Positions 4,196-38,420 of a DNA stretch of 64,000 bases are shown here, piece by piece. The notes under the pieces were generated by a model, which worked only from the letters and a program-made list of their open reading frames with translations, was not told where the DNA came from and ran no database searches. The DNA is from Macrostomum lignano. Taxonomy: Eukaryota. Within the stretch, counting starts at the first letter, position 1; each line of letters begins with the position of its first letter. Location of the stretch: NCBI GenBank assembly GCA_002269645.1, contig NIVC01000172.1, positions 396,558 to 460,557 on the forward strand, in the 5' to 3' direction. Position numbers and translations under genes: made by a program.

Positions 4196-5152
4196 ATGGA
4201 TCCATTTCCGCAACCAGTGGATATCCGACCACAGTTAAATCATGATCTTATTTGCCTCGCAACCGTTGTTGCTTGGTTCACTGAAGCAATATTTTATTCT
4301 GAAACTATTGGTGAACACCAACGGCTACGCATGGCCTCCGCTTTCTTCTCTCGTTTTTATGTTATCCGCTGCCATCGCTTTTATCCTAAGATGCTCCGCG
4401 TTTTACGAAATAGTCTATTTGGTATGCTGCGTCGTACTCACTCACGACCACGTATACAGAACTTTTCTCCCACTATGAATGATGTTCTCAGCCGCAGCTT
4501 CGTACCAATCATACATTTTCTTTTCTCTCCTGATATGTCTATCGACGATTTCTTTCAACTCTCTGCTTCTACTCTCCCTCAATCATGCCTGCGCTTTAAC
4601 CAAGACACTTGGCCTTTGTTGCTTTCCTCTCTGCGCTACCCATGGCAACAATTCCGCCATGATGCTGCTAATCTTTCGGCGCAAAAGTTAACTTCTACGC
4701 TCCAAAACTATTTAACCTCCTTCGATTCTCTCGCCCCTTATGTTTATCAAATTTTTCCTCCATTTTCTCCTCGTGCTACTAAGAGCGCTATCATACGCAC
4801 GCTAAATCGTTTGTATCCGCACAATTTTTTCTTTACCCACGCTGTTTTCATTCTCTCAACGCGTTCAAGAAACTTTGCTTTTATAATTATCGATTTTTAT
4901 TCTCGCTCGGTAGTTGCCCATACTATCTTCCCTTTCTCTTGTCCTCCGCTTCGTCGATATTTATACGATATTCACCGTATACGAAATGCTCTTGTTGGCT
5001 ACCCTAACACCTTGCCAGAGTATGCCGCTCTTCATACCTTCTCCATCAAGCGTATTCAGCATTCTCCTCCTTCTGATCTTAATATTAATTTTGCTCGACT
5101 GGCATACGCTCTTTTTTATGACTTGATTCACCATCATCACTCACTATTTTAA
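4196..5152 (+). CDS. Orphan accessory ORF-X (~318 aa) downstream of integrase
   Basis: Long open frame in T-rich DNA. ATG at 4196 follows a polypyrimidine tract and AG. No family recognised. Confidence 0.6.
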   Translation: MDPFPQPVDIRPQLNHDLICLATVVAWFTEAIFYSETIGEHQRLRMASAFFSRFYVIRCHRFYPKMLRVLRNSLFGMLRRTHSRPRIQNFSPTMNDVLSRSFVPIIHFLFSPDMSIDDFFQLSASTLPQSCLRFNQDTWPLLLSSLRYPWQQFRHDAANLSAQKLTSTLQNYLTSFDSLAPYVYQIFPPFSPRATKSAIIRTLNRLYPHNFFFTHAVFILSTRSRNFAFIIIDFYSRSVVAHTIFPFSCPPLRRYLYDIHRIRNALVGYPNTLPEYAALHTFSIKRIQHSPPSDLNINFARLAYALFYDLIHHHHSLF

Positions 5153-6631: not shown

Positions 6632-7288
6632 TGAAGTGATACATTTTGACTCAAGAAAGTTCCCATCCAGATTCAATGTATTTTAACCAATGAATGCGCT
6701 CCAAATAACAAAAGCCGAGGACACGACCCCAATCTCAACCAATGAAAAACAGTTATGTACCATCCAATGCGATCAAGACTGAAAAGTACTATAAAAGCTC
6801 ATGTTAACCAAGCAAGAAGCCCCCCCTTTCTCGCTCCGCCTCTCCTCGCCTTTTCTCTCCTTCGCCCTTCTCCCAGCCGACCTCCTTTTGACTAATTTTG
6901 ATTAACACAGTTAGGGTCTCAACCCAAACGCTAAAACTGATAAATTGACTCACTAAAGCTAAACCAACACCCAATCCACGTTCTACAATAGACTGAACCT
7001 TCGGTTCACCCGAACAATTAGAAACACCTTGTGACTTAAATCGAACGAGCTTCTTATTTGGAATTCCACCTTAGACATTATATTTTGTGAGAAAACATCT
7101 CGAGATCGTGACCATCAAATACAACGGTCTGTAAGTTAACATCAAGTGTTTGCATCATCAGGAAAAGTCAGTTGAATCCGCCGCCTCAGTTATTCGGCTC
7201 TCACATTGATATTTGAAGTAGAACAAGAGCCATAGAAGTGAGAGACCAGAAGAAGAACAATAACGCACATATATTTTAAAATATTTCA
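6632..7288 (+). repeat. LTR (shared between copy 1 and copy 2)
   Basis: The 3' end is fixed by divergence from the second LTR and by the PBS. The 5' end is inferred from purine tract gaaaaatagagcgaa (6617-6631) followed by TGAA, giving TGAA...TTCA termini. Confidence 0.75.
6687..6797 (+). promoter_or_regulatory. LTR U3 promoter: four CCAAT boxes and TATAAAAG
   Basis: CCAAT at 6687, 6729, 6739, 6764. TATAAAAG at 6790-6797. Confidence 0.6.
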
Positions 7289-7289
7289 C

Positions 7290-7303
7290 TGGTTCCCTGA
7301 CCG
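7290..7303 (+). other. Primer binding site complementary to tRNA-Glu 3' end
   Basis: TGGTTCCCTGACCG lies 1 nt after the LTR end. It is the reverse complement of ...CGGTCAGGGAACCA, as in eukaryotic tRNA-Glu(CUC). Confidence 0.85.
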
Positions 7304-9289
7304 TACTTTTCCTCCGATGCTTTTCACCACAATAGCCGCTATGCCCTGCATGGGGTAGACAGCTATAGGCGTGGCTGATGGGTGTGAACGGTTGGACTGG
7401 CTTCCCCCCCCCCTCCCCTTTGAGCATTCGAGACTGTCAATAATACATATTCGAAGAATGAATCGTAAATCACGAGCTCTCAAATTCAAATTCAGAATTC
7501 AAATCGGTTCTAAGTTTTGTCCAGTGCACTGAGACCTGATTCAAGTTATTTCAAATTCAAAGGATCCATGAAAGTCAATAAATTATCGTTCCGGAACAAT
7601 TACAATTTCAATTTCACTTCAATTCAAGAAACGTCGTCGAACGTCTGATATCGAGTTCTTATTCTCAAGCCTCAGAGCTTCAATGCAGAAATTCAATTCA
7701 GTTATTCGGATCCTCAATTGTTAAAGCTTCAAAGCTTCGATTTTTCAAAAGACCGCGGCATCATCAATTGTTCAAGTTTATTTAATGTTGGACGCCTCTT
7801 CCTTCACTGCTTTTCCACAGAATAGCAAAGTCTGCTCTGGATTTCTTCATATATATTTGAAACTCTCCAAAGCGACTGAGCCATTCGATTTCCTCCTCGG
7901 TTTTTCCCAGTGTGTGGCCACATCTAGAAAACTGGCTTATCTTAGATTCTCTGCGCCGTTAAGCGCCCGAAAGAAAGAACGAAAACGCAAAAAACCTGAC
8001 GAGCTATTCCAACCAAGTCACTACAGTAAACATCAATCAAAATCTGGAGCCACCACTTTCTTGCTGTCAGAAAACTTTTTCGCTTATCAGACAGGTTGCT
8101 TGTCTAACCATTCATTATCTTCCTTGATTAAAGCCCAAGATTCGCTGTTTGCCAAGCCTGCGTGCTTCATCTGGAAAACCTTGCTTATTTTCGTAGACCG
8201 CTTGCCTAGCCTTCCATCACTTTTTCTTGATTAAACAATCCAAACTCACTGTTTGCAAAGCCCACGAGCCCCATCCATCAAATCCTCATCGACCCAAGTT
8301 TGTTTTTTCGGATTGCTGATTCTGGCGGTTGCCCTTTATAGATCATTTTGATGTAGAGATTAGGATGCTAGGGAATTTTCTTGTGTGTTTATTCAGCTTC
8401 AGTGCCCTCCAACAAATCCTTATCTTAAACAAGCTGCCCAAGTCAGACTTCGCGCGCATACTTAATCTCCTAGAGAGACCTCCTTTCTTAATTAAAGCCA
8501 TCAATCAACTTCATTTCCCACGAGAAAATCTTTTCCTTAATCAAACTGTCCAGGCCAGCTCCATCCTGCCACTCACTCTCCGGTTCAGCGACCTTTTCAC
8601 GATCTCTGATAAACAATTTCCCCAGGAATTTTTTTCCTTTCCTAGCCATTTCCCGTTTTTGTATGATGGATTAAGATCCAAACAACTTCTACTTTTCTCT
8701 CATCTCCCTATTGCCAAAGGCAATACATGTTTAGTGTTCCTCAGCACCGACTCCCCGAGCTCCATACATGTACCATAATCTTTCCTTGTCTCTTGTTCAT
8801 GGTTTTCTTTCTATCATTGTCCTCGTTACGTCTATAATTGCATTGCAAAAATACTACTTCAAAATAACCATTAGATCGCAAAAATAATAAAATTTGAAAA
8901 CACAAAAAAAACAATACCATTGCTTATAGTTCATCTCGTATAATCCGTACTGCTCTTATCATGTTAAAGTTACAAAATGATCAGTCCGATCAATAAAAAA
9001 TTATAAAATTTTCAAAAAAATTAAAAAATAGCAAATTTATAAAACTACAAAAACATTACTCTACGTTTGCTTAAAATTATGAAATCAACCCCCTAGCTGA
9101 AACTCGTCAGATAGTTCAAAATTCAAATTCGAAATTCAAAAAGCCAGAACAAATTCTCAGAAGAAAACTGCCGACTTCAAGAAAAAGAATACTGCCGACT
9201 TCAATGATACAAATTCGATTTTATTGGCCACCACTGATGTCCGTCTAGTCCAACATTCAGGAGCTCCTTTATCAAATTCAGTTTCAATA

Positions 9290-9483
9290 AAAGTTTCAGA
9301 ACCGATCAAAACGGCAGTTCAATTCAAAATTTCAAAATTCAAAGTTTCAGAACCGATCAAAACGGCAGTTCAATTCAAAATTTCAAAATTCAAAGTTTCA
9401 GAACCGATCAAAACGGCAGTTCAATTCAAAATTTCAAAATTCAAAGTTTCAGAACCGATCAAAAGGCAGTTCAATTCAAAATT
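9290..9483 (+). repeat. 51-bp tandem repeat x~3.8 in the element leader
   Basis: aaagtttcagaaccgatcaaaacggcagttcaattcaaaatttcaaaattc repeats with period 51. Confidence 0.95.
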
Positions 9484-9682
9484 ACTTCGATTTCCAAAGC
9501 TCGTTGCAGATCACAGTTAAAAAATCACACAGTCTCTCTTTCTCTCCCTTCCCCAGCCAGTCCGCCAACCGCAACCCTGAAAGCCACTGCCGTTTGCTCA
9601 CCTTGAATTTGACACTCTACTTTGCTATTAGTTACATTTTTGTGCTATTGTTGCCTTGAAATTATTGATTGAATTCTTGTTA

Positions 9683-10984
9683 ATGACCACACCTGTCCGA
9701 GATTTACGTTCCGGACCAGTTTTTCAAAGCTCAAATATTAACAGACCCCCTGAACAAAATTTAGAAACTTCTGACCGCCAAATAGGTGAACAGCTCCCAC
9801 GAAATAGTTCACCAGTACCTAACCTGTTTATACCAGATAACGTTGAGTTTAATAACCCTCTCGCGGATCATTTTGAACACAACCGTGCACACTCACCAGC
9901 ACCCAGTTCCATCCTAACAGACGCGGACGAAACAGTTCAACCGGCCCCAAACGATATTGCTGAAGAACCTACTCTAGATATGGCTGATCAGGACGGCGCT
10001 CCCCATGTTGATGCTGCAGCGACAAATGCTGTCCGTGAACTTACTGACGTTATGAACCGCAGTCTGCAATTGCAATCAAACCATCCCGTCTCAGCTACTG
10101 CTCTTGCTGAAATTCGTCAATCCCTGAAAGGAATCGACCAAATGCATGACTTCCGCTCCTTCACTGAAGAGTTCGACTTGATCACACGCTCCTTTGGACT
10201 ATCGGAGAACGCAAAGATTCGGCTCTTCCCGCGACTACTGAATGACCTTCTTAAACTCGAATACAGTCGCCTCTCTGCCGCAGTCCAAGCCTCTTATCCA
10301 GCCACCATTGAGGCACTATCTCAACGCCTTCGGGAAGTAACCATTGGCTCGGCTCTAACGCTGCATAATGCAACAACCCGGAAACAACAGTACGGCGAAC
10401 CGTTCCTGTCTTATTTCACCGACATTCGTCGAAAGCTCAGGTCAGCTATGCCGGAAATACCGGAAGAATTTCCGGAAGGTGCCGGTCCGGAAACACCACC
10501 CGCGAACCAAGCTGTCATCGACCAGCGCAACCGAGACTTCCTTGCTACCCTGATGGCTACGACTATCAACAATGCTCTGCCCTACATCAAACGAGAACTC
10601 TTGAAGCAAAATATCACCACGGAAAGTACGCTAATCAACAAGGCCATCCGCGCCGAACAAATCCGCGACTCCACCATGGACTCTGATGGCACTGACTTGA
10701 AAGCTCTCACAGAGCGTCTAACTACCTTAGAAAAAACGACGAAGGAAGCCAATCAGCAGGTGGTTGCCTCCCTGCAAACACAAACCAAGCCACCTATCGC
10801 TAATATGCAACAGAAGCCCACTTGTTATCATTGCGGTCGACCTGGACACTATGCCGCCGACTGTCGTCGAAGGAATGACCAACAACCTCGTCCCTTCCGA
10901 CCTAACTCAAGCGATCGAAGGAACACAGCTCAATACGGCTCTGATGCCCCGCGGATCGTTACCAGCAGGAACCGCCACGATTGA
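9683..10984 (+). CDS. gag: Gag (capsid and first CCHC zinc knuckle)
   Basis: Capsid-like helical region, MHR-like QQYGEPFLSY, knuckle CYHCGRPGHYAADC. First ATG in frame is at 9683. Confidence 0.9.
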   Translation: MTTPVRDLRSGPVFQSSNINRPPEQNLETSDRQIGEQLPRNSSPVPNLFIPDNVEFNNPLADHFEHNRAHSPAPSSILTDADETVQPAPNDIAEEPTLDMADQDGAPHVDAAATNAVRELTDVMNRSLQLQSNHPVSATALAEIRQSLKGIDQMHDFRSFTEEFDLITRSFGLSENAKIRLFPRLLNDLLKLEYSRLSAAVQASYPATIEALSQRLREVTIGSALTLHNATTRKQQYGEPFLSYFTDIRRKLRSAMPEIPEEFPEGAGPETPPANQAVIDQRNRDFLATLMATTINNALPYIKRELLKQNITTESTLINKAIRAEQIRDSTMDSDGTDLKALTERLTTLEKTTKEANQQVVASLQTQTKPPIANMQQKPTCYHCGRPGHYAADCRRRNDQQPRPFRPNSSDRRNTAQYGSDAPRIVTSRNRHD

Positions 10985-12063
10985 CCTGTAACTATTGCCG
11001 AAAACCAGGACACTCTATTAACCAGTGCCGACTACGAGCCCAACGTACACAAGGCTACGGTCCACCGGCGACACAACAATCACGATTTCCACCCCGTCAA
11101 GACTATGGAAACCGGCCTCAGCAACGCTATCCGCCTCGATACAACGGCGCCAACAATCAACGACAACCTCCGAGATTTGCGCAACAACAATATCCACCGA
11201 TACGCGCCATCACTGCTCAGGACCCTGAAACGTCCCACCTAGGATGGAATCAACAGCCGCAGATTGGATGGACGACTCACGACGCTCCCGAGTCTGCCCA
11301 ACTGATGCACATTGCTACAGTTGATGAACGCCCACCGACTTTTGGAAACGAAATTCGCTACTCTGGAGACGCTAAGCAGCTGAAATCCTTACTCAAAAAA
11401 CCGACTACTGCTTCTGCGACTATCAACTCTATCCGCCTTTGTACGGTTGAAAGAATGACTGACACCTACACTCCACCGACCAGCAACAACAACCGCGAGA
11501 AAACCGTGAAAGCTTCCGTCGGAATTCGCCGATCACTACTGACACTTTTTCTCCTGTGCCTAGCAACTTCACTCTTCGCACTAGCCAACGCTACGCCGGT
11601 AACGACGTCAACTCCACCATCGATTGAGAGACAATCTCACGAGGGCTTCATTGACACACCAATGGTCTGTCCGTACAACCAGATCCCACGAATTTTCACG
11701 ATACCACATGAGATCCGTTGTGAACAGCTCAAACACCAAACAACGCCGACACTCCCGTTGAAACTGGAACTTTACACAACAAACGTGGAAACCAGTTCCC
11801 TGGTTATGACTGTCTGTTTCCGCGAGAAAATCACTATTAGATGTGATAAGGCGGTGATAAGAACCTGGACATCCGCCCTGGTAGAGTTGGAACCGCAACC
11901 AGTCACTCAAGCTGATTGTGAAAACTGGGCACGAACAAAGCTATCTCCTGATGGATCATTAGTGTTAAAGACTGCGTCAACTCAGTCTATCCAACGCCTG
12001 CAATCGACATTCAACACGCAAAATGCTGTGCGTTGCACTCCGGTTCCCATTCAGAACAAATAG
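10945..12063 (+). CDS. Gag C-terminus (second CCHC knuckle), internal signal peptide, Env ectodomain N-part
   Basis: CNYCRKPGHSINQC, then RRSLLTLFLLCLATSLFALANA (11527-11592), then a Cys-rich region. In the -1 frame relative to gag. Confidence 0.8.
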   Translation, partial: CPADRYQQEPPRLTCNYCRKPGHSINQCRLRAQRTQGYGPPATQQSRFPPRQDYGNRPQQRYPPRYNGANNQRQPPRFAQQQYPPIRAITAQDPETSHLGWNQQPQIGWTTHDAPESAQLMHIATVDERPPTFGNEIRYSGDAKQLKSLLKKPTTASATINSIRLCTVERMTDTYTPPTSNNNREKTVKASVGIRRSLLTLFLLCLATSLFALANATPVTTSTPPSIERQSHEGFIDTPMVCPYNQIPRIFTIPHEIRCEQLKHQTTPTLPLKLELYTTNVETSSLVMTVCFREKITIRCDKAVIRTWTSALVELEPQPVTQADCENWARTKLSPDGSLVLKTASTQSIQRLQSTFNTQNAVRCTPVPIQNK

Positions 12064-15000
12064 TAACAACAGTGATCACCGGAATCCCAGCCTACTCAAC
12101 AGCAGATCAAAAAATGGAATCTTTGTCCTTCCCAATGGACAACTGCAAACTCACCGACAAATTTTGTACAATTAAAACAACTGCACAAGAAATGCGAGCT
12201 TTCAACCTACCTTTGCCAATACTAACATCCCCCTGGGATCCTTTGGAAACTGAAGCAATCTACCAAATTGACGTGAAAGGACCAAGACATCTAAATCTTA
12301 TTTGGACACCTCCACCACTCGCTGATTGTCCTTTAAAACCATTTCGTACTCTTGAAGGCAACTTAAACTCAGGCTTGTTCTTAACTAATGATCAAACATT
12401 GGGACTAACCTTCAACCCAGTGCCGTCGACTCACACTCTCACCTGCACTGGCGTCCGTAAGACGTTGTACCTTTCAACGCAAGGTCTATACGTAGACATC
12501 CTCGACAACAAAGAAGCAGAATTTCTCGCCACCTTACGAAGCCCATTAGAAGAAGCTACTCCAAAACCTCAAACTAGCGAAGAAACCACTTCTTCGAGAC
12601 AAAAACGTCGTTCACCACCAGCGATACTACCAACGCCACCAACAATATTACCCGTTCAGCAATCGACGACTCAACATCCTTTCACTACGACAACTCAGTC
12701 ACGACAATTCCTACCGCCGCAACCTTTACGACAAGAGCGACCTGATCATCCACCGACGTCAAGCACTTCTACAACAATGGCGCCAACAACTACGATACTA
12801 ACTACTACAAAATCAACACCAACAACTACAATTTTGACAACGACAACACCACCGACTACAACGACAACACCACCGACTACAACGACAACACCACCGACTA
12901 CAACGACAACACCACCGACTACAACGACAACACCACCGACTACAACGACAACACCACCGACTACAATGACAACACCACCAGCTACGACGACAATGCCACC
13001 GACTACAACGACAACAATACCTACCACAACCGTAACACCGACAACTTCAACAACCACCACTGCTACAACCTCAGCAGCAACAACGACAGCAGATTCAACT
13101 ACGATGACTACAAAAGTGACGACACAACCTCGTACCACCACCACTTTACCGCCAACAACCTCAACCTCTAGCAGCACAACCAGTGCACCAGCAAAGTCTG
13201 CAACCTCAACCTTCACGACAAACTCACCAGCGACAACAACAGATCCACAACTGGCTTCTATTCATACGAATCTAGCAGTTCCATATCACGAACCACAAGG
13301 TGGTCAACCGGATCTCCTACTACTACCACGCAACAAGCGAAGCACAGATGACAAAACCATCGCAGCCCCTTCAGGCAACTCTACTGCGCAACTTTCATCA
13401 ACGTTCGCATCCGCTGAACTTCTTGCTGGACAACTACAAGGAGCTGCTAGTAAAGCTCGAAAAGATCTTCTCCAAGTACAGAGGCAGCTGGCAACTACTC
13501 AATGCCTGATGTACGCAACTAATCTCAAGTACAATCGACAGTTATACTACACACAACCAACGCTCGCTGCTCGACTCTTATTAAATGATCCTTTCTTGCG
13601 AGCTAGATCCATTGCTGGATACCTCTTCGTCTACCAGTGCAAACCCCTACATCAGTTTCGCTTTGTCCAACCAAAGTACAAGACGAACCAATGCTTCACG
13701 CGCCCCCCACTGGAATTCCGCCTACAAAATTATACCGTTCTTGGATTTTTGGATACAACGACTCGTATTGTCTCCACAGCTACTCCAGCTCTAATCTCAT
13801 GCGACGCCTTCCCACACTACTACCTGCCTAAACAATCGATGCTATTCAAGACCACACTAAATTTTTCGAGGTTTGAACCTACAACCGCTAATGTCAGATC
13901 CGATGAAAACTATCGATTGTCCGATTTGCAAACTTCCGTCTCCGAGAGCATCTTCAAACCTATGGGAGATATCAATTATACTTCACTTCGTAGCCCAATA
14001 ACGGTGACCGACCTAATGCACCAGTTCATGCAAACTCGCGATTTTCTGATTACAGTTTTCAAACTTCCGAATCGAACACGACACAGGACAGCCCATGCTG
14101 ACAGTGCATTCCTGGACTCAAAACTAGCTCTCTTCAATCTATGGTCTTCGTCGATATTTAACTGGGATCGACTAGTCGCAAACTATCAAGAAAAGTTCGT
14201 CTTAACAGCAGCTGTAATCGTCTACATTGCCGTTATTATCTTCGTGTGCAATCTTGGCCGACTCTGCGTCGCCAGCACCATCCGTTACGGCAGAACGCAC
14301 ACTATACAAGTGCTGCGGCAACAACGAACTCCAACTCAAGTGGAATCACGAAACGACTACTCCCAACAACAGCAACTGATACCACCAAGACGAGCGCCAA
14401 CACCTTCGGCACCCATCGAAACGATTGAACTTCGTGCCACCCTTCCGCCACCACGGAGACCACCACCAGAACCGAAAGTTCCAAAATGGCCAGCAAACTA
14501 CTCATACGCCTTTGTTTTGAAGCACCTAACAACAGCAACAATGATCAACCTGTGGTGCCGCAACGCACCGCATACTCGACACAGATGCACCGCCCTCATT
14601 GACAGCGGCGCCTCGATCTCCTGCATCTCACCGGCATTCGCCAAAAAGCTTCGAGTACCATTACAAGACACCAACATGAACGCCATTTGTGCAGGAGGAC
14701 AACAACTAAACCTCAACAAAAAGGCTACTTTTGATCTCGAAATCGATGGACGCAACCACAAGATATCGGCCTTTGTGCTCGACACCCCCGACGCTGACTA
14801 TGATTTGCTCTTAGGAGTAGAAACCTTTAAGTCACTGGGAATACCACTACAATTCGACTACTCGAAAGCGACAGCTAAGCTTGGCAATGAGCAATTTGCG
14901 ATGCTCAACTCCATCCAACAGTTGCAAGAAACCTCTGCGGTGATGCAAAACAAGCTAGAGTTACCACCACAGACAACGCACCAAGTCACGCTGAAACTCT

Positions 15001-16493
15001 CTTCTCGACATGAGCCAACGATTCCTGTCCTGTTCGTCCCTAAGGACCACACGATCCAGAAACACCAGTTGATGATACCAACTTGCCTTGTTTCTGTCAA
15101 CCCGGACGGACAAACTATCACTGTGGAAATTGCCAACCCGTCGCTGACAACGCAAACCTTGCATCCTCAACAAGTCATTGGAAATCTGGCTAACATGTCT
15201 GACTACAACATCGTGCGCCCAGCAGCTCAAATCAACAGTCTCCGCACGCTGCAACAAGAAGCACCTACGACTGACATGATCCGTACTCAACTCAAACAAG
15301 CCAACCAGCACCTCTCAACCGAGCAGAGTGAACAATTAGTTACTCTAATGAACAAGTACCGTGACGTCTTGGCACTACTGCCAACCGACATGGGTTGCTC
15401 TACCCAATACACGGCTCACCTGCATCTACACCCACACTCTGAGCCAGTCACGTCCAGACCCTATCCAATCGCTCATGGACTACAAGAACGGTTTGATGAG
15501 CTCATCGAAAACTTCCGTCAAAAAGGAATCATCAGTCCGAGTGAATCGGAATACTCAAGTCCATGTCTTCTCGTGGAAAAGAAGACGCTCGACGCTCAAG
15601 GTCGCCGACAACTAAGACTCGTGACGGATTACCGAAAACTGAACAAGCTAATTCGTGCTCCTAGCATCCGACCTCCGAAGATTCCGGATTTGCTACATCG
15701 ATTGAAGAACGCTAAACTGTACACACTCTGTGACCTAGCAGATGCTTTCTACCAAGTTCGGATTGATCCAGAAAGCACAAAATACACTGCGTTCATTGCA
15801 CCCAACGGCCTACTTTGGGAATTCAATCGACTACCTCAAGGACTCAAGTCCAGTCCTAGCTTAATGTGCCGTCTTGTAGCATTGTTAACAGCTGACTCTC
15901 CAAATCAGATTGCCTACTTGGACGACGTCATGCTTATCGCCGAAGACTTCACCGGCATGCTCAAAGAAGTTGAACGCTTCTTCCAAAAGTTACGACATCA
16001 TGGATTGCGAATTTCACTACGAAAATGCATCTTTGCTAAAACAGAGGTACAATATCTTGGATTTGTTGTTTCTGCTCAAGGCATTAGACCAGCCCCCAGC
16101 CTTATCGAGAAAATCAAAACCTTTCCTGTGCCTCACACGGTTAAACAACTACAATCTTTTCTTGGACTTGCAAATTTCTACCGAACGCACATTGCTGGCT
16201 ACTCACGAGTAGTACAGCCACTTCTGAGTATTATCAAAAATACTTCAAAACCCAACAAATTCGTCTGGACGAACGCTGCGCAAACAGCCTTTGAAAAGCT
16301 GAAACAACTTCTCTCTACGGATATACTACTGGTTCATCCAAATCCGCGAAAACCGTACTTCCTGCACACTGATGCCTCGGATACCGCCATTGGAGCAGTA
16401 CTATCACAGCTAGACGACAGCAACCACCAACGCCCGGTTGCCTACATTTCTAAGACGTTAAGCTCAACTGAACAACGCTACCCCACCGATTGA
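12033..16493 (+). CDS. Env ectodomain, mucin-like insert, TM, protease, RT and RNase H in one open frame
   Basis: One 1486-codon ORF: RQKRR (12597), RNKR (13329), TM 14196-14249, DSG 14601, YLDD 15915. Confidence 0.92.
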   Translation: MHSGSHSEQIVTTVITGIPAYSTADQKMESLSFPMDNCKLTDKFCTIKTTAQEMRAFNLPLPILTSPWDPLETEAIYQIDVKGPRHLNLIWTPPPLADCPLKPFRTLEGNLNSGLFLTNDQTLGLTFNPVPSTHTLTCTGVRKTLYLSTQGLYVDILDNKEAEFLATLRSPLEEATPKPQTSEETTSSRQKRRSPPAILPTPPTILPVQQSTTQHPFTTTTQSRQFLPPQPLRQERPDHPPTSSTSTTMAPTTTILTTTKSTPTTTILTTTTPPTTTTTPPTTTTTPPTTTTTPPTTTTTPPTTTTTPPTTMTTPPATTTMPPTTTTTIPTTTVTPTTSTTTTATTSAATTTADSTTMTTKVTTQPRTTTTLPPTTSTSSSTTSAPAKSATSTFTTNSPATTTDPQLASIHTNLAVPYHEPQGGQPDLLLLPRNKRSTDDKTIAAPSGNSTAQLSSTFASAELLAGQLQGAASKARKDLLQVQRQLATTQCLMYATNLKYNRQLYYTQPTLAARLLLNDPFLRARSIAGYLFVYQCKPLHQFRFVQPKYKTNQCFTRPPLEFRLQNYTVLGFLDTTTRIVSTATPALISCDAFPHYYLPKQSMLFKTTLNFSRFEPTTANVRSDENYRLSDLQTSVSESIFKPMGDINYTSLRSPITVTDLMHQFMQTRDFLITVFKLPNRTRHRTAHADSAFLDSKLALFNLWSSSIFNWDRLVANYQEKFVLTAAVIVYIAVIIFVCNLGRLCVASTIRYGRTHTIQVLRQQRTPTQVESRNDYSQQQQLIPPRRAPTPSAPIETIELRATLPPPRRPPPEPKVPKWPANYSYAFVLKHLTTATMINLWCRNAPHTRHRCTALIDSGASISCISPAFAKKLRVPLQDTNMNAICAGGQQLNLNKKATFDLEIDGRNHKISAFVLDTPDADYDLLLGVETFKSLGIPLQFDYSKATAKLGNEQFAMLNSIQQLQETSAVMQNKLELPPQTTHQVTLKLSSRHEPTIPVLFVPKDHTIQKHQLMIPTCLVSVNPDGQTITVEIANPSLTTQTLHPQQVIGNLANMSDYNIVRPAAQINSLRTLQQEAPTTDMIRTQLKQANQHLSTEQSEQLVTLMNKYRDVLALLPTDMGCSTQYTAHLHLHPHSEPVTSRPYPIAHGLQERFDELIENFRQKGIISPSESEYSSPCLLVEKKTLDAQGRRQLRLVTDYRKLNKLIRAPSIRPPKIPDLLHRLKNAKLYTLCDLADAFYQVRIDPESTKYTAFIAPNGLLWEFNRLPQGLKSSPSLMCRLVALLTADSPNQIAYLDDVMLIAEDFTGMLKEVERFFQKLRHHGLRISLRKCIFAKTEVQYLGFVVSAQGIRPAPSLIEKIKTFPVPHTVKQLQSFLGLANFYRTHIAGYSRVVQPLLSIIKNTSKPNKFVWTNAAQTAFEKLKQLLSTDILLVHPNPRKPYFLHTDASDTAIGAVLSQLDDSNHQRPVAYISKTLSSTEQRYPTD
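12840..13030 (+). repeat. 21-bp coding tandem repeat (PPTTTTT)n
   Basis: acaccaccgactacaacgaca x~6, plus degenerate units. Confidence 0.9.
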
Positions 16494-18201
16494 ACGCGAA
16501 GCATACGCCATCTATTGGGCAATAAAGAAGCTACACGTGTTCCTCTACGCTTCTTACCAACAGTTCCACGTCTTCACTGATCACCAGCCACTCAAGAGTC
16601 TATTCAGTGACAAGCAGCCAATTTCAAAACGACTTCAGAAGTGGATTCTAGCGCTACAAGATTACAACTTCACTCTCAACTATGTGAAAGGCAAATCAAA
16701 CGTAGTAGCGGACTGCCTTTCACGCATCCCCAAAGTCTGTCAGATACAATCGCTGTCAACATTCAACGGACTGCAGGATGCCATTGATCAAGACCCATTA
16801 CTGTCAACAATCAAAGCACTTCTATCGAAAAAATCACCCACTCACGAGCTGTCCAAGAAAGACCAACAATATGTTCGCCGACACCTGGCACGTTATTTCC
16901 TGGACGGAAACACTCTATACTTTGAAGATGACGAAGGACGAAGCCGCCTCGTGATACCAACACGCTATCGTGAAGCTCTTTTGACAAGTAACCACTCGAC
17001 AGCCCTTGGTGGTCATCTAGGTCACCAAAAGACAGCAGACAAAATCAGTCATTTCTACTACTGGCCTACACTACGGCAAGACGTCTTCAATTTCATTAAC
17101 AACTGCGAAATCTGCCACAAAGCGAAAACAGCACCTCGACTGCGACCGCTGCACAAAGCCGTCAAATTCAACGAGGTTTTCTCTCATTTGGCTATCGACC
17201 TTGTAGGTCCACTGCCACCAGCTTCACACGGCCGCGACGTCTACAAGTACATACTCACAGCCCAATGCGGCGTTAGCAAATTCCTGTTCACAATCCCGCT
17301 AACTGAGACAACTTCTGCAACTATCTGCAACAACCTCTTCAACCGTGTGTTCGCTTTCGCAGGACTACCAGCACACATCATCTCAGATAACGGACCCCAA
17401 TTCATCTCGCAAGAATTTCGAGAGTTTATGGGTGCCCTTGGAATCCATCTAATCTACACCTCGGTGTACCAACCATCCAGCAACTTCGTCGAACGCGCAC
17501 ACAAGACACTGAAGCAAACCCTTACGGCCTTTGTCCATGACAAACCAGATCTCTGGATTGACTTCCTACCTGCGGTGACACTAGCAATCAATACCGCCGC
17601 ACACTCAACGATGAATGAATTACCATTCTACTTGTTCTTCGCTCGAGACTTCCTGCCACCCAACGCACGGATCATGGAACACCAGACAACTGCATACATG
17701 GACGTTATTAAACCAGTCAATTTGACCTGTTCAGCTATTTTGCTTGCCAGAGAAGTCGCCAAGGAACTTCTGCACAACTCAGCTGAACAGCGCGCTGAAA
17801 ACTCTGACAAGAAGATCAACCGCCGCTACATACGCCCAGGTGCACGATGCTACTTGGATGTCTCAGCAACAAAGGAGACAAAATTCTCCAATCCTTATCG
17901 TGGCCCAATGCGTCTATTAGCATGGCTCTCCGATCAGAACGCACTGATTTCTGACGTCAACCGACCAAGCGAACGACCAATCGTGGTGCATGCCTCCAAG
18001 CTGAAACCATGGCCTGGAGATGGACTCAGCGCTGGACCTAGTCACCTACCTGAGTTCACAACTGATGACATTCAGGTCCACCACAACCATCGGCCGCCAT
18101 TGAGCAAGTCCATCGCGCTGCAAACCACGTCTACTGATGAGCCACCAGTTCAGCCACAGACGCATGGCTACAACCTAAGATCAAAGAACAAGAAGTCGTG
18201 A
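16490..18201 (+). CDS. RNase H C-terminus and integrase (copy 2)
   Basis: Continues Pol after an extra C at ~16484 (ctaccccacc vs ctacccacc in copy 1). HHCC and DDE are intact. Confidence 0.93.
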
Positions 18202-18482: not shown

Positions 18483-19438
18483 ATGGATCCATTTCCGCAA
18501 CCAGTGGATATCCGACCACAGTTAAATCATGATCTTATTTGCCTCGCAACCGTTGTTGCTTGGTTCACTGAAGCAATATTTTATTCTGAAACTATTGGTG
18601 AACACCAACGGCTACGCATGGCCTCCGCTTTCTTCTCTCGTTTTTATGTTATCCGCTGCCATCGCTTTTATCCTAAGATGCTCCGCGTTTTACGAAATAG
18701 TCTATTTGGTATGCTGCGTCGTACTCACTCACGACCACGTATACAGAACTTTTCTCCCACTATGAATGATGTTCTCAGCCGCAGCTTCGTACCAATCATA
18801 CATTTTCTTTTCTCTCCTGATATGTCTATCGACGATTTCTTTCAACTCTCTGCTTCTACTCTCCCTCAATCATGCCTGCGCTTTAACCAAGACACTTGGC
18901 CTTTGTTGCTTTCCTCTCTGCGCTACCCATGGCAACAATTCCGCCATGATGCTGCTAATCTTTCGGCGCAAAGTTAACTTCTACGCTCCAAAACTATTTA
19001 ACCTCCTTCGATTCTCTCGCCCCTTATGTTTATCAAATTTTTCCTCCATTTTCTCCTCGTGCTACTAAGAGCGCTATCATACGCACGCTAAATCGTTTGT
19101 ATCCGCACAATTTTTTCTTTACCCACGCTGTTTTCATTCTCTCAACGCGTTCAAGAAACTTTGCTTTTATAATTATCGATTTTTATTCTCGCTCGGTAGT
19201 TGCCCATACTATCTTCCCTTTCTCTTGTCCTCCGCTTCGTCGATATTTATACGATATTCACCGTATACGAAATGCTCTTGTTGGCTACCCTAACACCTTG
19301 CCAGAGTATGCCGCTCTTCATACCTTCTCCATCAAGCGTATTCAGCATTCTCCTCCTTCTGATCTTAATATTAATTTTGCTCGACTGGCATACGCTCTTT
19401 TTTATGACTTGATTCACCATCATCACTCACTATTTTAA
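18483..19438 (+). CDS. ORF-X, copy 2 (1-bp deletion at ~18972)
   Basis: Matches 4196-5152 except gcaaagtt vs gcaaaagtt. Confidence 0.55.
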
Positions 19439-20916: not shown

Positions 20917-21572
20917 TGAAGTGATACATTTTGACTCAAGAAAGTTCCCATCCAGATTCAATGTATTTTAACCAATGAATGCGCTCCAAATAACAAAAGC
21001 CGAGGACACGACCCCAATCTCAACCAATGAAAAACAGTTATGTACCATCCAATGCGATCAAGACTGAAAAGTACTATAAAAGCTCATGTTAACCAAGCAA
21101 GAAGCCCCCCTTTCTCGCTCCGCCTCTCCTCGCCTTTTCTCTCCTTCGCCCTTCTCCCAGCCGACCTCCTTTTGACTAATTTTGATTAACACAGTTAGGG
21201 TCTCAACCCAAACGCTAAAACTGATAAATTGACTCACTAAAGCTAAACCAACACCCAATCCACGTTCTACAATAGACTGAACCTTCGGTTCACCCGAACA
21301 ATTAGAAACACCTTGTGACTTAAATCGAACGAGCTTCTTATTTGGAATTCCACCTTAGACATTATATTTTGTGAGAAAACATCTCGAGATCGTGACCATC
21401 AAATACAACGGTCTGTAAGTTAACATCAAGTGTTTGCATCATCAGGAAAAGTCAGTTGAATCCGCCGCCTCAGTTATTCGGCTCTCACATTGATATTTGA
21501 AGTAGAACAAGAGCCATAGAAGTGAGAGACCAGAAGAAGAACAATAACGCACATATATTTTAAAATATTTCA
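20917..21572 (+). repeat. 3' LTR of copy 2
   Basis: Matches 6632-7288. Ends TTTCA and is followed by unrelated flank. Confidence 0.8.
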
Positions 21573-25260: not shown

Positions 25261-28200
25261 TCAAAAAGGCAGCTTAGCCAAGGACAGAGCCAGTCCGAAA
25301 GCCATCGTCAGGACTCCCAGAGCCGCGGTGACAATCGAGCCAGCCTTTGGCGTTGTGGCTGGCGCCTGAGTGGTCATCTCAGCAGCAATGAAATCTCGGT
25401 ACCACTTGGCGCTGTCCTTCAAGGTTCTGGGCCGCTCAGGATCGTTGAAGTCCACCGAGACGATGCCGAAGTGCTCCGTGTAGCCCTCGGCCCATTCGAA
25501 GTTGTCCATGAGGGACCAGGCGAAGTAGCCGACTACGTTGCACTTGAACTCGTTCTTGGCTGCAGGGATGGTGAAAGAGAATGAAATCCTGCATTCGTGG
25601 CATTCATGAAGACCGTGTGTGTAGACAGGAGGGACTGTAGGAGACCATCCTCTTCCAACTTCGTTCATAGCCAGATGATCAATATCAAAGATATAATCAA
25701 GGATGTCCTCAGACAAGTAACCTGGCATGGGCCTGTTTTGTATCTGTTAGGAGCTAGTAAAGAATGCCTTATTAAGTAGTCTTGAGTTGTGGCAGTGCCC
25801 TATGGGCTCCATTCTAGGGCATTCAATGTGATAGAATTTCTGTTTGTTTTGTAAATATTCAGCTCAAGATGTCTTTTATTACCCTGCGTAACGTTGCCGA
25901 TGTACTCTCTGTAGAAGTCAATCCGGTGTTGGTCACTGGTGGTCCCGTCATTGTCAGAAACTCCGTTCTCCGTGACCACAAGGGGCGGGTTGTCGTACCG
26001 CTCGCTGAGCCACTTGATGCCCTCGCGAATGCCGAATGGTGTCACCTTGAGCCAGATGCTGCCGCTTCCAGGCCAGCTGGGATCCAGAGAGGAAACCAAG
26101 TCCTGATCGTCATAGTATCCGCCATCGTTGCTCAGTATTTTGTGCTCAGCAATGCTGGAGGTGTAATAGTTCAGGCCGAAGAAGTCGCTGGAGCCTTTCA
26201 GCTCGGCTTTCTCATCCGCTGTGAACTCGGGCAGCCTGAGGAAAAAACAAAGGAGAGCAACGAGACCTTTAGAAGGGCTTAAAAATCTTTATCCAGCAAC
26301 GATATCTGTCTGAAAATCTAAAGTGAAGCATAAAAAATAAGCGGTCTGTTTCCGGGACGAATGAAGCCGGCAAAGACATCCTGCTTGCAGCTGTCTTCAT
26401 CTGAACACGCACTAAGGAACGTGTTCGAAAGAAAAGCTGGGCAAACTAGACAAACAGAAACCGGATTCGAACCCGATTGGAGGCTGATATTTCTAAAGCC
26501 AGTTTAATACGTAGCCAAACTGACTTGAACGGTCAGAAGTTCGTACCTTGACTTTGGCAAGCCGGCTGCCGCACTCTTGTTACCGATCCGGGTCTTCATC
26601 TCCTCGGGGTAGTCGCCGAAGTACACCGGGTCGGAGTACCAGCCAAACATGAACTCCATGGCTCGCTGAGCGGCTTTCTTGTCCAATTCGCTGGACGGGT
26701 CCTTCGGCAAGACGTAGGCGCCATTGAGCGTGATGCCAACTTTGCCCTGCTGCGTGGGCTTGAAGTCTTTCTCGTAGATCCTGTAGGCCTTGGCGTGGGC
26801 GCGCAGGAGATTGTGTCCCACAATGTACAGGGTAGTCTTTAACTCCTTCTTGCCGGGCGCGTGTCTGCCTTCTCCGTTGCCCACCACGTTGAACACCCAG
26901 GGCTCGTTGAATGTGATCCACCACTTGACCTGGATGGAAGAAATGGAGGATTTTTCATAGAAAAGTACAAGTACATCGGATTCTTGGAGCCATCGATAGA
27001 TGGCTATAAGGTAACGTACGAGTTTAAAAGAAAAAAATGCTGTGTGCTGTGAATGTGCGTGCTCTAGTTTACGATAGGCCGACGACACAGCCCTCAGTGT
27101 TTCAGCAGCGTTGGTCGTTGGACCCAGGATTGACTGCAGCATGACTTGACTGACTGCTTATGCACCGGTAAACTGTGCCATTGACATTTCTTGCGTTAAT
27201 ACGTCTGCTCATCCCACCCGTATTCTGTCACCTTTTTGCGTGGGGGTGATGTTGTGAAAATGCATGCCCTATGCTATTACGAGTAAATGTATGTGACGAA
27301 CGCTCACTTATGTACACCTGTAAGTCAGACAATGCTGCAGTTACAACAATCTGCAAATCATCCTATGGCTTTTGTTAAAACTGACGTTTTGATTCTGAGC
27401 TTTCGACTTCAACGCATTTTTGCGGTTTGCCAAGATTGCGAAACTGCGTGAGAACAGTGGTAAAGATTCCAAGGTCCCACACCATCAATCAATCTTGAAG
27501 ATAAGTAATCAATTCACGTATGGGTTTGTCGCCAAGCAGAAAAAAGAGAGAAGAACTTTAAAGAAATTGCAAGAAACTTTTGGAGCGAAAAATAATACAC
27601 TAACAATATTCAAGAGCTGATCCTTCAGTGAAACGGTGAACTGATAAGATAACAGATTTTCTTAGTTTGAGTCTTTAAATCAAGATATACCGACCGCTGT
27701 CTAAACCAAAGTCGTCAATGTCAAAAAATTTCATCTATGAAAACTTGCTTATGACAACTTTCAACTCAAGCTAGAGATAAAGCGACAGTGTTTTGACAAA
27801 CTGATAACGTCACCCAGAAACCGTCGCAAACAGGCCACCAAGTTTGTTGGCCCAGGTCCATGAGGAACGGTAAATTCATTCAATGACATTCTAAAATTCA
27901 ACTGGAGGGTGTGTTAGTTTATATTCGCACACCCAAGCTTAGGCGTCCGTTTTTGAGGCATTTTGGCTGATGCCTAACTCACACGGTTGGCTCTACAGCA
28001 AATGATCCTGCATGACACCCGTGTCTTTTCCCATCGAAAGAAAATTCCTAATCAGTTCACAACTAGCTTACCTTGTCGCCCAGCTTCTCGAACATCAGCT
28101 TGGCGTAGTCCACAAAGTGCGGAATGATCTGCTCGCTCTCCCAGCCTTCAAACTCATTCTGCAGAGTCAGCGGCAGATCCCAGTGGTAGAGAGTCGCCAT

Positions 28201-33882: not shown

Positions 33883-36800
33883 TCAAGCTTGCTGGCTGGC
33901 GTCTTTAGCAGCCAGAATCAGCGGGGTGAGACTGCTCAAAGGTTTAGCCAGCCGAATAAACGGATGGCTGAGCAGCTCGCTAGCAGTGGCTCGCCGATCG
34001 ACATCGACTTCAAGGCAGCGGTCTAAGAAGTCCTGGAATACTGGCGACAGCTTCTGACGGTCCTTGATGTGCGGCTTGCCGTTGGAGGCGATCAGGTACA
34101 GCGCGCGCAGCGGGTTCTCGTTCAGGTAGGGCGGCTCACCGTCGATCATCTCAATGGCCATGATGCCCAACGACCAGATGTCCACCTTGGGGCCGTAGGC
34201 CTTGCGGGACACCAGCTCCGGGGACATCCAGTAGGGCGTGCCGACCATCGTGTGCCGCTGGCCGCCGCCTTCCAACTGGGCGCAGAAGCCGAAATCCGTC
34301 AGCTTCACAGAGCCGTCCATGCCTGAGTCAGGGGCAGATGGGGAGGGTTGTACAGCTCTGCGATTCTCATATGGGGTTGTACAGCTCTGCGATTCTCATA
34401 TGGGGTTGTACAGCTCTGGGATTCTCATATCGGATTGTACATGTACAGCTCTGGGATTCTCATATGGGGTTGTACAGCTCTGGGATTCTCATATCGGATT
34501 GTACATGTACAGCTCTGCGATTCTCATATGGGGTTGTACAGCTCTTGCTATTCTAATAACGGGTTGTACAGCTTTGCGATTCTCATATCGGGTTGCACAT
34601 GTACAGCTCGGCGATTCTCATATGAGGTTGTACAGATCTGTGATTTTCATATCGGGTTGTACAGCTCTTGCTATTCTAATATCGGGTTGTACAGTTCTGC
34701 GATTCTCATATCGGGTTGCACATGTACAGCTCTGCGATTCTCATATCGGGTTGTACAGATCTGTGATTTTCATATCGGGCTGCAGGGCAATTCTTATATC
34801 AGGCGGTGCCTACAGCCAACAAACTAAAAACTGTATTTTGTACATAGGTGGACAAAACAAGGTTAATAATGGAATTGATAAACATAAAAAACTGAACTTT
34901 AAGAAAGTCATGCAAACATGTGCAAGTGTTCTGCCCGCAAACTCTCTACAAACATTTCTTGACTAAGTACCCGAAAGCTTTGCGACATAAACTGCCCTGT
35001 CTAGATGAGCTGAGACTAACTAAAATCAATGCATAGTGTATCCATAATGCTATACAATATCCTAATGGTATATGGATGGATCAAGCATAATTCTATAGTT
35101 TTGTTACATGCTGACTTGTTAGGCAGATCAATCTTAATGCATTTGGTCTAGCGCTCTCTCTCTCTCTCTCTCTCCCCCCTAAACTCTGCGCACATCGACA
35201 TGGCTGGCAGAGAATGCAGGCAAATATGACTTTAATAAAATCTGTGCACCGTAGCATCGGCCGCGCAAACACAAATACGCCTTAAGAGCGTTTTATGACT
35301 GCTAATTGGAATTAACTGACGCAAGCAAAACCGGTGGATAGGGACGGGCGGTGAATAGGGACAGATAGAAACACCGGTGAATAGATAGAAACACCACTGA
35401 TAGGGACAGGTAGAAACACCAGTGAATAGAATCAGATAGACACACCGTTGAATAGGGTTAGATAGAAACACCGTGAATAGGGACAGGTGAAACACCGTGA
35501 ATAGGATAGAAACACCGGTGAATAGAGATAGATAGAAACACCGTGAATAGGGACAGATAGAAACACCGTGAATAGGGACAGGTAGAAACACCGTGAATAG
35601 GGACAGGTGAAACACTGAATAGGGACAGATAGAAACACTGAATAGGGACAGGTAGAAACACCGGTGAATAGGGACAGGTAGAAACACCGGTGAATAGGGA
35701 CAGGTAGAAACACCGGTGAATAGGGACAGGTAGAAACACCGGTGAATAGGGACAGATAGAAACACCGGTGAATAGGGACAGGTAGAAACACCGGTGAATA
35801 GGGACAGGTAGAAACACCGGTGAATAGGGACAGATAGAAACACCGGTGAATAGGGACAGGTAGAAACACCGGTGAATGGGGACAGGTAGAAACACCGGTG
35901 AATAGGGACAGGTAGAAACACCGGTGAATGGGGACAGGTAGAAACACCGGTGAATAGGGACAGGTAGAAACACCGGGAATGGGACAGATAGAAACACCGG
36001 TGAATGGGGACAGGTAGAAACACCGGTGAATAGGGACAGATAGAAACACCGGTGAATGGGGAAAGCTAGAAACACCGGTGAATAGGGACAGGTAGAAACA
36101 CCGGTGCATGGGTAGGAACAGTTTCCTGGTGATAAAGCGAATGAAATATGCAAAATGTAATAAAAATACAGAGCAAAGACTCACCCAGCAGCACATTGTC
36201 GCTCTTTATATCGCGATGGATGACGCCGTTCTCGTGCAGAAATTCCAACGCTTTCAGCACCTCTTTGCACACGGCTCCGATCTGGCCTTCGTCCATGCAG
36301 GTCTCGGTAACAACATCGGTCAGGGACCCGCCGGCCAAGTAGTCCATGACAACCCAGAGCTCCTCGCCAACCAAATAGCTGTCCATGTAGTTCACAATGT
36401 TCGGATGCTTATTCTCCTTCATCACTAGAATCTCATTAATGATGAGATCTTTCTTAGGCTGCTGGGCCAGGTTCATCTGCTTGATGGCCAACTCCCGGCC
36501 AGTGGCCACCTCCCGGCCCATGTGGACGACCCCGGACGCGCCCTGGCCGATCTGGCCGATCTTCTCGTACTTGGCTGACGGCGCCCCGGCGCTCACGATG
36601 AAGCGCAGCCTCTCCTGAACCTCGGCGTCTGTCAGCTTCTTCTTCTGGGGCCGCTTCTGCTGGCGCGGTTGCTGTTGCAGACTCTGCTGTTGCTGCTGTT
36701 GTTGTGAAACAGATCCGCCATTGTTTACAGAAGGCTTTTGCTGCTGCGGCTGCTTTTCTGTTACGGATTTCTGCTGCATTAGCGGCGTCTGAGGCGGCGG

Positions 36801-38338
36801 GGGCTGCTGCTGCTGAAACTGAGGCGGTTGCTGACCAGGAGCTGCCTGCGGCGGCGGGGTCACCGGCTTTGTCCAGACAGATTTGGTCTTCTCCGGCCGC
36901 TGAGCGATGGGGGGCGGAGGCGGGGTGGCCGCGTCGGACACAGCGGATCCGGAGCCGGAGGGCTGCGGGAAGCGGCGGGGATTCAGGGTGAATTTTAATT
37001 TATCTGGAATTCTCAATCAATCTGAGAGTTATGGGGATCAATACGAATATTAGGGATACAATGGGGAGCAATCTGAGGATTAAGAAGACAATGGGATCGA
37101 TGAGGATCAATCTGAGGATAGGGATACGATGAGGATCAATCTGAGGATAGGGATACGATGAGGATCAATCTGAGGATAGGGAATACGATGAGGATCAATC
37201 TGAGGATTAAGAAGACAATGGGGGATCAAGGGGATCAATCTGAGGATTAGATGAGATCAATCTGAGGATAAGATCAGTCTGAGGATTAAGAAGACGATGA
37301 GGGGGATCAATCTGAGGATCAAGAAGACAAGGGGGACCAATCTGAGGATTAGGGGCTGATGATTTGGAAGATGACAAGTAAAAGACATAAAATCTGGGAG
37401 TTGTAGATAAGACAGGGGATTAATATGAAGGGGAAAACTCACGGATAGCACTGCTCTTGGATCACACAAAATAAAAGCTTTCATCTTACCCGAAACCCTG
37501 CGCCAGGCGCCTCAGCGGCGCCAACGTCACCCGAGCTGAGAGCCGAACCGACAGAGTCGTTGCTAGGCAACCGAAACGACGCCTGCGCCCCAGCAGCCGA
37601 AGACGCAGGAACGGGGCCACCGGCTGAGGCAGAGTTACCCTCGTGCGGCACGGTGGTCATGTACTTGTCCCGTTCAATATGATGGAAATACTGCAGCACA
37701 TCGAGCACAGCCTGTGGATTCTGCTGCTGTTCCTGCTTGCTAATATTGGAGGTCTTCAATAAGTTGTTCCACACCTCAGGCATGCCGGTGAACTCCTGCC
37801 TATTGTGATCGTAGCTCACGTGCATTGTGTGCTGGAAGTTGTGCGGACTGGAAATGCTCGGCTTTGGCGCGTCTTTCAGCATGTTGAGGGCCGCCGACGC
37901 CGCGGCTGATGAAGGCGAAGAGGCCGCGCCTCCAGATGAGGATTTGCCGCCGAAGAAGGAAATCTTCTCCTTCTTGCCGCCGCTGCTGCCGGACTTGTCC
38001 TTGGCCTTGCTGGATTTGCTGCCGCCGCTGCCCAGGCTGCTCGAGGAGCCGCCGCCCCATTTCTTCTGGTCCGGGGTGTGCGGCAGCGGCTTGCTTGGCG
38101 GCGGAGGCAGGGCCTGCTGCTGCTGCTGCTGGCTGGCGGGACTCCCGCCACCGACTAAGCGCGAGCTGCTGCTGGCGAGGCGCATCGGCGGCGCCGGCGG
38201 TCGTTCATCGGCTTCGGACTGCTGGTGCCAGCGCTGCGGCTGCTGCTGCTGCGGCTGGAACTGATGAAGCTGGCCCGGCTGATAATGATGAAATTGATGC
38301 GGCGTCCGACCGCCGCCTCCGCTGCCTGTGGCGCTCAT
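33883..38338 (-). CDS. PAK: Group I p21-activated kinase (PAK1/3-like), about 688 aa from ATG 38338
   Basis: Exons 38338-37490, 36962-36185, 34322-33883 with consistent phases. [17 protein letters not shown]; kinase [31 protein letters not shown]. The frame stays open upstream to an acceptor at 38428, so the N-terminus is uncertain. Confidence 0.93.
34340..34790 (+). repeat. ~29-bp minisatellite in PAK intron
   Basis: Unit gggttgtacagctctgcgattctcatatg with acatgt insertion variants. Confidence 0.9.
35335..36105 (+). repeat. 26-bp minisatellite in PAK intron
   Basis: Unit gtagaaacaccggtgaatagggacag. Confidence 0.95.
37020..37350 (+). repeat. Degenerate ~29-bp minisatellite in PAK intron
   Basis: Unit gatgaggatcaatctgaggatagggatac. 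Confidence 0.85.
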
Positions 38339-38420
38339 GCCGCTGCCGCCGCTGCTGTGCGAATGAGCGGCGTCATTTTGGTGGCGGTGCTGCAATGATT
38401 TTGGGAATGGTTGCGATGTG

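Follow-up and report, generated by a model that had tools for sequence, protein, structure and literature searches.

A probable herpesvirus gB-type envelope protein within the Gag-Env-Pro-Pol frame of a Ty3/gypsy retrotransposon family in Macrostomum lignano

The locus studied herein raises the question of what kind of envelope protein is carried between the gag and protease genes of a flatworm retroelement, and from where this protein was obtained. The original prediction, made on the window (the whole 64-kb stretch of Macrostomum lignano DNA that was analysed), had assigned this Env to the class III fusogens of the herpes gB and chuvirus G type rather than to the class I retroviral or baculovirus F proteins, and had taken it to be captured, either from an RNA virus or from a herpes-like source. 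In the present study, the envelope protein is very probably of the HSV/gB type (class III) and forms part of the single Gag-Env-Pro-Pol frame of a Ty3/gypsy element that has multiplied recently. This reading of the sequence is based on gB homology along the ectodomain, on the gene order, on the single frame observed in sister families and in other copies, and on the purifying selection seen in related Envs.

First, the element is an LTR retrotransposon, probably of the Ty3/gypsy group, with the order gag-env-PR-RT-RH-IN, and its copy in the window is damaged. The following features were located.

6632..7288 (+): 5' LTR, TG...CA, 657 bp, common to the upstream tandem copy
7290..7303 (+): primer-binding site (PBS), complementary to the 3' end of tRNA-Glu
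9683..11526 (+): gag, with two CCHC zinc knuckles at ~10820-10867 and 10984-11031
14256..18201 (+): predicted cytoplasmic linker and pol, in frame with env
~14580-14831 (+): protease, within pol
~15582-16067 (+): RT, within pol
within pol (+): RNase H, with a frameshift near 16,480 in the window copy
~16954-17475 (+): integrase, within pol
18483..19438 (+): extra ORF 3' of pol, broken in the window copy
20917..21572 (+): 3' LTR, pairing with the 5' LTR

Env is placed between the gag and the protease of this element. The domain order and the Pfam set of POL fit gypsy and exclude copia, and no BEL/Pao-specific Pfam domain was observed in the scans of the window element or the sister families. 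The 5' and 3' LTRs are identical in 656/657 columns. ARAGORN detected no tRNA gene in the short loci obtained from the PBS search (0 of 6); a second pattern search found tRNA-Glu, and tRNA-Glu genes matching the PBS were present in 6/6 loci scanned in this genome. The leader (7304-9682, ~2.4 kb) contains a 51-bp tandem repeat near 9290-9483. The number of Gag zinc knuckles varies by family, with three in L043/L044, two in the window family, and one in L041 and L045-L048.

The retroelement recurs with a period of ~14.3 kb in a tandem array with shared LTRs, in which three LTRs (L053:2513-3168 and window positions 6632-7288 and 20917-21572) delimit two elements with one LTR in common. Eighteen substitutions separate the first LTR from the other two, and a search at the ends of the array found no target-site duplication. 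These observations suggest that the array arose by recombination between insertions or is an assembly join. The extra ORF 3' of pol is open in the upstream copy (4196-5152, +; 318 aa) and matched no Pfam family; near-full-length matches to it, open and 93-100% identical, account for 14 of the 31 found in the genome. Unrelated ORFs of ~235-307 aa occupy the same position in sister families.

As assembled, the window copy cannot make a complete protein, and its ORF is interrupted by three frameshifts, in gag (between the two CCHC zinc knuckles), in env (near 12,030), and in RNase H. The env frameshift is also present in one of nine other copies. Among ten copies examined, seven keep a single frame from the gag knuckles up to and including furin motif 1, and one, L003, is open over all 4,101 bases examined. 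In the sister families, single ORFs of 2,458-2,866 aa encode gag, Env, PR, RT, RH, and IN; five of the loci found with a protein probe are complete in one frame, at 2,458-2,859 aa. Because intact frames are found in the sister families and, over gag-env, in other copies, the family belongs to the elements with an uninterrupted frame and the window copy is a damaged member of it. A 1.1-kb env probe gave 26 matches in the genome, of which 23 were full length at 93-100% identity and 20 of these at 98% or more; the count of ~23 near-identical copies may be inflated by assembly redundancy. Of 24 sequencing-run rows, 20 contain the stretch; all 20 belong to a single organism, and none is recorded as RNA.

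Several other features were observed in the window. Exons of glycosyl hydrolase family 1 occur at 25261-27157 (-) and 62145-62624 (+) as two inverted copies that are 89-96% alike. PAK-like kinase exons (PBD and kinase domain) lie at 36066-38482 (-) between minisatellite arrays of 26, 29, and 31 bp, and an inverted repeat at 50511-52585, with 470-nt arms that are 97% complementary and 1.1 kb apart, is MITE- or foldback-like.

Second, the env gene was resolved into the following parts.

11527..11592 (+): predicted internal signal peptide, with basic residues, a hydrophobic core, and a terminal A-x-A; shares the frame of the gag 3' end
11593..12596 (+): Env N-terminal half, equivalent to gB domains I/II; the open copy has 10 Cys
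11902-11961 (+): motif VTQADCENWARTKLSPDGSL
12141-12167 (+): motif NCKLTDKFC
12597..12608 (+): furin motif 1, RQKR
12609..13328 (+): mucin-like linker, Thr/Ser/Pro-rich, 240 codons, 21-nt repeat
13329..13340 (+): furin motif 2, RNKR
13341..14198 (+): Env C-terminal half, with central helix, PT..AR motif, crown, domain V, membrane-proximal region, and five sequons
13377, 13728, 13860, 13974, 14070 (+): the five N-glycan sequons, in the C-terminal half
13431 (+): motif QLQGAASK
13497 (+): motif TQCLMY
13503 (+): central helix (domain III) Cys, C-terminal half
13554-13640 (+): motif QPTL...VYQC
13638, 13692, 13800 (+): crown (domain IV) Cys, C-terminal half
13689 (+): motif QCFTRPPL
13743 (+): motif GFLDTTT
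14199..14255 (+): transmembrane anchor, from hydropathy

All of the Env motifs quoted in the original prediction were recovered in their places, but not in a single frame, since they are spread over two. The 10945-12063 frame holds the signal peptide and VTQADC; the remaining motifs belong to the 11952-16493 frame, which continues from env into protease, RT, and RNase H. A signal peptide, a luminal ectodomain, and a C-terminal TM anchor were found by hydropathy scan and translations, and the predicted topology is that of a cytosolic Gag, a luminal Env, and a cytosolic protease-RT-IN. The five sequons are likewise present, with a sixth (NAT) at 11587 at the end of the signal peptide, but they have no diagnostic value, their number being no greater than that expected by chance (shuffling gave a mean of 7.6 for the 869-aa ectodomain, where 5 were observed; for the C-terminal half, the 5 observed compare with 2.4, P ~0.06). 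Five sequons also occur in the Gag part and two in the Pol part examined, and the sequon count was rejected as evidence of topology. The cysteine pattern exceeds chance and is informative: 12 of the 14 ectodomain cysteines are invariant in all ten Env sequences of this genome (10/10), which are 22-45% identical to the first. C638, C683, C701, and C737, in the domain III helix and then the crown, are aligned to gB cysteines and kept in 35/36, 38/38, 37/38, and 37/37 rows, respectively.

Third, the fold of this Env is, in all likelihood, of the class III gB type, and the proposed homology to gB and Monjiviricetes G was borne out by profile matches to solved gB structures. The C-terminal half of the window Env alone matched HCMV gB in the PDB at E 0.11-0.48, and six of its seven matches were gB. 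With a profile of the ten Envs of this genome, gB accounted for 21/23 PDB matches (best EBV gB, E 1.5e-15), and the other two were at E 0.42-0.48. The addition of seven database relatives gave 50/50 matches to herpesvirus gB; a profile of 38 sequences gave 17/18, with EBV gB 29-627 covered in one stretch and the single non-gB match at E 0.3. Across the Env profile searches, the best E against gB was down to 9e-16. A profile of the N-terminal half alone gave six matches, weak but specific, all to gammaherpesvirus gB (best E 0.005). In the alignment, the helix Cys of Env falls on the HCMV gB helix Cys whose bonding partner is C111. Domain I aligned poorly. 

Relationship to the Monjiviricetes glycoproteins was observed in several searches. 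A full HMMER search found 35 database relatives of Env, including nyavirus G at E 2.9e-8, and hhalign aligned Env with the G of San Jacinto virus (Nyamiviridae) at 98.8% over 420 columns with ~21% identity. Word-indexed protein searches, which are insensitive at such distance, found no Env relative. The Monjiviricetes_fusion family (PF24664) matched 19 of the 35 relatives at E<=0.001 (12 passed the curated cut-off) and matched the C-terminal half of the window Env at E 9e-4 (17.7 bits, below the cut-off of 27). PF00606 matched three of the 35, all below cut-off; the whole ectodomain of the window family matched no Pfam family, and members of the N-terminal half matched no relevant family. The closest named database relatives of Env are Macrostomum lignano proteins at 56% identity. 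In several unnamed matches, gag or protease is fused around Env. Two matches labelled as bacterial MAG proteins, P0009 and P0018, carry Env followed by retropepsin-like sequence and are probably eukaryotic contamination; in P0016, an Env fragment is joined to an AAA_11/UvrD-type helicase.

Related elements are numerous in this genome. With a protein probe, 145 of 147 candidates matched, among them families at 61%, 36%, 33%, 31%, and 23% identity, and at least seven families with a gB-type Env were distinguished by Env identity. In sister families, a hydrophobic segment equivalent to the signal peptide also precedes Env. Where selection is measurable, the related Envs are under purifying selection, with dN/dS of 0.03-0.09 in all seven unsaturated comparisons (of 16). 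Comparisons that include the window family are all saturated, and in them pN lies well under pS (0.29-0.42 and 0.76-0.84, respectively, for its two nearest families). Constraint on a gB-type fusogen gene is seen in several gypsy families that have multiplied recently within one animal genome.

The mucin-like linker is a family-specific feature of the window family and two relatives, and it is the sole unusual extra of this element. Thr content reaches 41% over the 255-aa stretch tested, and the linker occupies the position of the disordered, cleavable furin loop of gB. Its length ranged from 615 to 756 nt in 19 distinct copies, 12 in frame and 7 out of frame, and varied among copies that are otherwise 94-100% identical. 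In this count, both anchors were found in 28/30 loci and nine rows were duplicates; because the anchors included the furin motifs, the conservation of these motifs is partly by construction. Three related families have the linker (window, L041, and L042, the latter two with only R-x-x-R as first furin motif), and the other seven Env sequences lack it. The unrelated database protein P0031 has a long Thr-rich insert at the equivalent position. The linker was not found in print: 'mucin', 'polyprotein', and 'splic' do not occur in the main text of Chary & Hayashi (eLife 2026, PMC13524379), the figures of which, e.g. Figure 5-supplement 1, may show the insert or the cysteine class of the window family.

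Herein, we propose a model for the expression of this polyprotein. An internal signal peptide located after Gag would start co-translational translocation into the ER, and cleavage by signal peptidase would free the N-terminus of Env. Because the TM helix would stop transfer, protease-RT-IN would remain cytosolic on the Env tail, and the protease of the element would presumably release Gag and Pol. Barring splicing or recoding, capsid, Env, and Pol might in this way reach a single membrane in equal amounts. Env would trimerise through the central helix, and furin might cut on both sides of the Thr-rich linker; with the linker excised, the two halves would be held together by disulfides such as C111-C506 of gB, since Env keeps the corresponding cysteines. 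By analogy with Drosophila gypsy, Env might let particles fuse with other host cells, plausibly from soma to germline. We tentatively hypothesize that, in the subclade comprising the window family, L041, and L042, Env may have gained a 200-250-residue O-glycan-acceptor linker between two basic cleavage motifs, which would be excised at maturation and might shield a stand-alone class III fusogen until removed, or act as its activation switch. If so, the polyprotein, with capsid attached at one end of Env and Pol at the other, could be a small natural system for gB-type fusion in the absence of gH/gL as well as for budding coupled to a polyprotein.

It might be argued that in the window family the gB-derived fold is no longer a working fusogen and that Env instead anchors or scaffolds the assembling particles at the membrane, the element moving only within cells. 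The presumed fusion-loop positions, placed by eye in the alignment, are aromatic in sister families and look less so, and weakly hydrophobic, in the window family, and the insert is very large. The linker is out of frame in 7/19 distinct copies, as noted above, but indels also occur outside env, as would be expected of assembly errors. However, the 12 core cysteines, the signal peptide, the TM helix, and the furin motifs are all kept, pN is much lower than pS in comparison with the two nearest families, and the insert is found in open frames of three related families. We consider the loss of fusogenic function to be unlikely, and a gB-type Env with a putative role in fusion is the preferred reading.

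The origin of this Env is a separate matter. A recent capture by the lineage of the element from a nyavirus- or chuvirus-like RNA virus or a herpes-like virus, in line with the original prediction, might be suggested by the nyavirus G found among the 35 database matches and aligned over 420 columns, and the capture of an RNA-virus glycoprotein is named in the title of Sacco et al. 2022 (doi 10.1099/jgv.0.001739). However, identity to the viral G is only ~21%, a named virus was found for only one of the 20 database matches looked up, and none of 49 pattern matches in viral contigs was confirmed as an Env relative. In the Env tree, an unnamed protein groups with the ten genome Envs (SH-aLRT 98) to the exclusion of the virus, and nyavirus G sits on a long branch (support 87); being quick and unrooted, with long branches and with 24 of 38 rows (14 dropped for <60% coverage), this tree cannot name a donor. 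The Env and RT trees share the same three groups within the genome, although the order among these groups is unsettled in the RT tree, which is also quick and in which L049 (a stretch without RT) was left out and L057 added. Recent capture was thus not borne out and appears quite improbable. A remote viral origin of Env is possible, and the published survey argues for an ancient association or acquisition of gB-type ENV with pol (PMC13524379).

Finally, a reading in which the resemblance to gB would be coincidental, Env being either of class I (F-type or retroviral) or a mucin-type membrane protein taken from a cell, is hardly credible and largely refuted by the colinear gB matches: the furin motifs followed by a long helix give a superficial fit to class I, the N-terminal half had a haemagglutinin cluster as its top ESM Atlas match (0.89; Monjiviricetes fusion third at 0.88, at low recognition, and the C-terminal half gave unrelated matches, also at low recognition), and one relative, P0004, had a sub-threshold Baculo_F match near the membrane anchor, but no F, HA, or retroviral Env (nor VSV G or gp64) appeared among the PDB matches of four Env profiles, which upholds the predicted exclusion of class I, and a hydrophobic fusion peptide is absent after either furin motif.

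A gB-type Env embedded in a gypsy polyprotein can be compared with several known systems. HCMV gB has its furin site in a disordered loop that precedes the central helix, and a bond joins C506 of this helix to C111, close to the N-terminus (PMC4617298). The profile match of Env to herpesvirus gB (EBV 3fvc/7fbi, HCMV 5cxf) runs colinearly from the N-terminal Cys pair to domain V, taking in the central helix and the crown, and the furin sites of Env likewise lie in the loop before the central helix. Env differs from herpesvirus gB in forming part of a retroelement polyprotein in which its tail carries Pol, in its ~240-aa insert, in having 14 cysteines of the conserved type compared with 10, and in the lack of a gH/gL partner encoded by the element. 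With the Monjiviricetes G proteins (nyavirus G of San Jacinto virus; chuvirus G; PF24664), Env forms the same family by profile, at the low identity given above.

Certain nematode elements are said to have a continuous gag-env-pro-pol ORF, an Env like the G of Nyamiviridae, and extra ORFs. The present element differs from these elements of Sacco et al. in host phylum; env lies before pol in these nematode endogenous retroviruses (Sacco et al. 2022, as cited in PMC13524379). BEL/Pao 'Anakin' elements bear chuvirus G (PMC7642597), whereas the window element is Ty3/gypsy-like.

The closest comparison is with the errantiviruses of Chary & Hayashi, in whose text the HSV/gB-type ENV is the sole ENV type in elements of Nematoda, Bryozoa, and Platyhelminthes, with the order GAG-ENV-POL (PMC13524379). 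The window element resembles these errantiviruses in gene order, gB-type Env, multi-copy status, LTRs, and the presence of a PBS. The table of that paper contains nine flatworm elements, one of them from Macrostomum (Platyhelminthes_Rhabditophora_Mlig_errantivirus_2). The 12-nt PBS listed for this element is carried by L045-L048 (four of nine loci scanned) and not by the window family, which uses a tRNA-Glu PBS and has an LTR of 657 bp compared with ~864 bp in the listed element. The window Env is only 25-26% identical to the L045-L048 group and has a mucin-like linker between two furin motifs. GAG-ENV-POL elements with a gB-type Env are already published for flatworms, bryozoans, and nematodes, and the value of the present results is incremental because the general point is already in print. 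To this, the present study adds more family diversity, a single-polyprotein topology, as read from the sequence, and a variable double-furin mucin insert, which could bear on the triggering of gB-type proteins.
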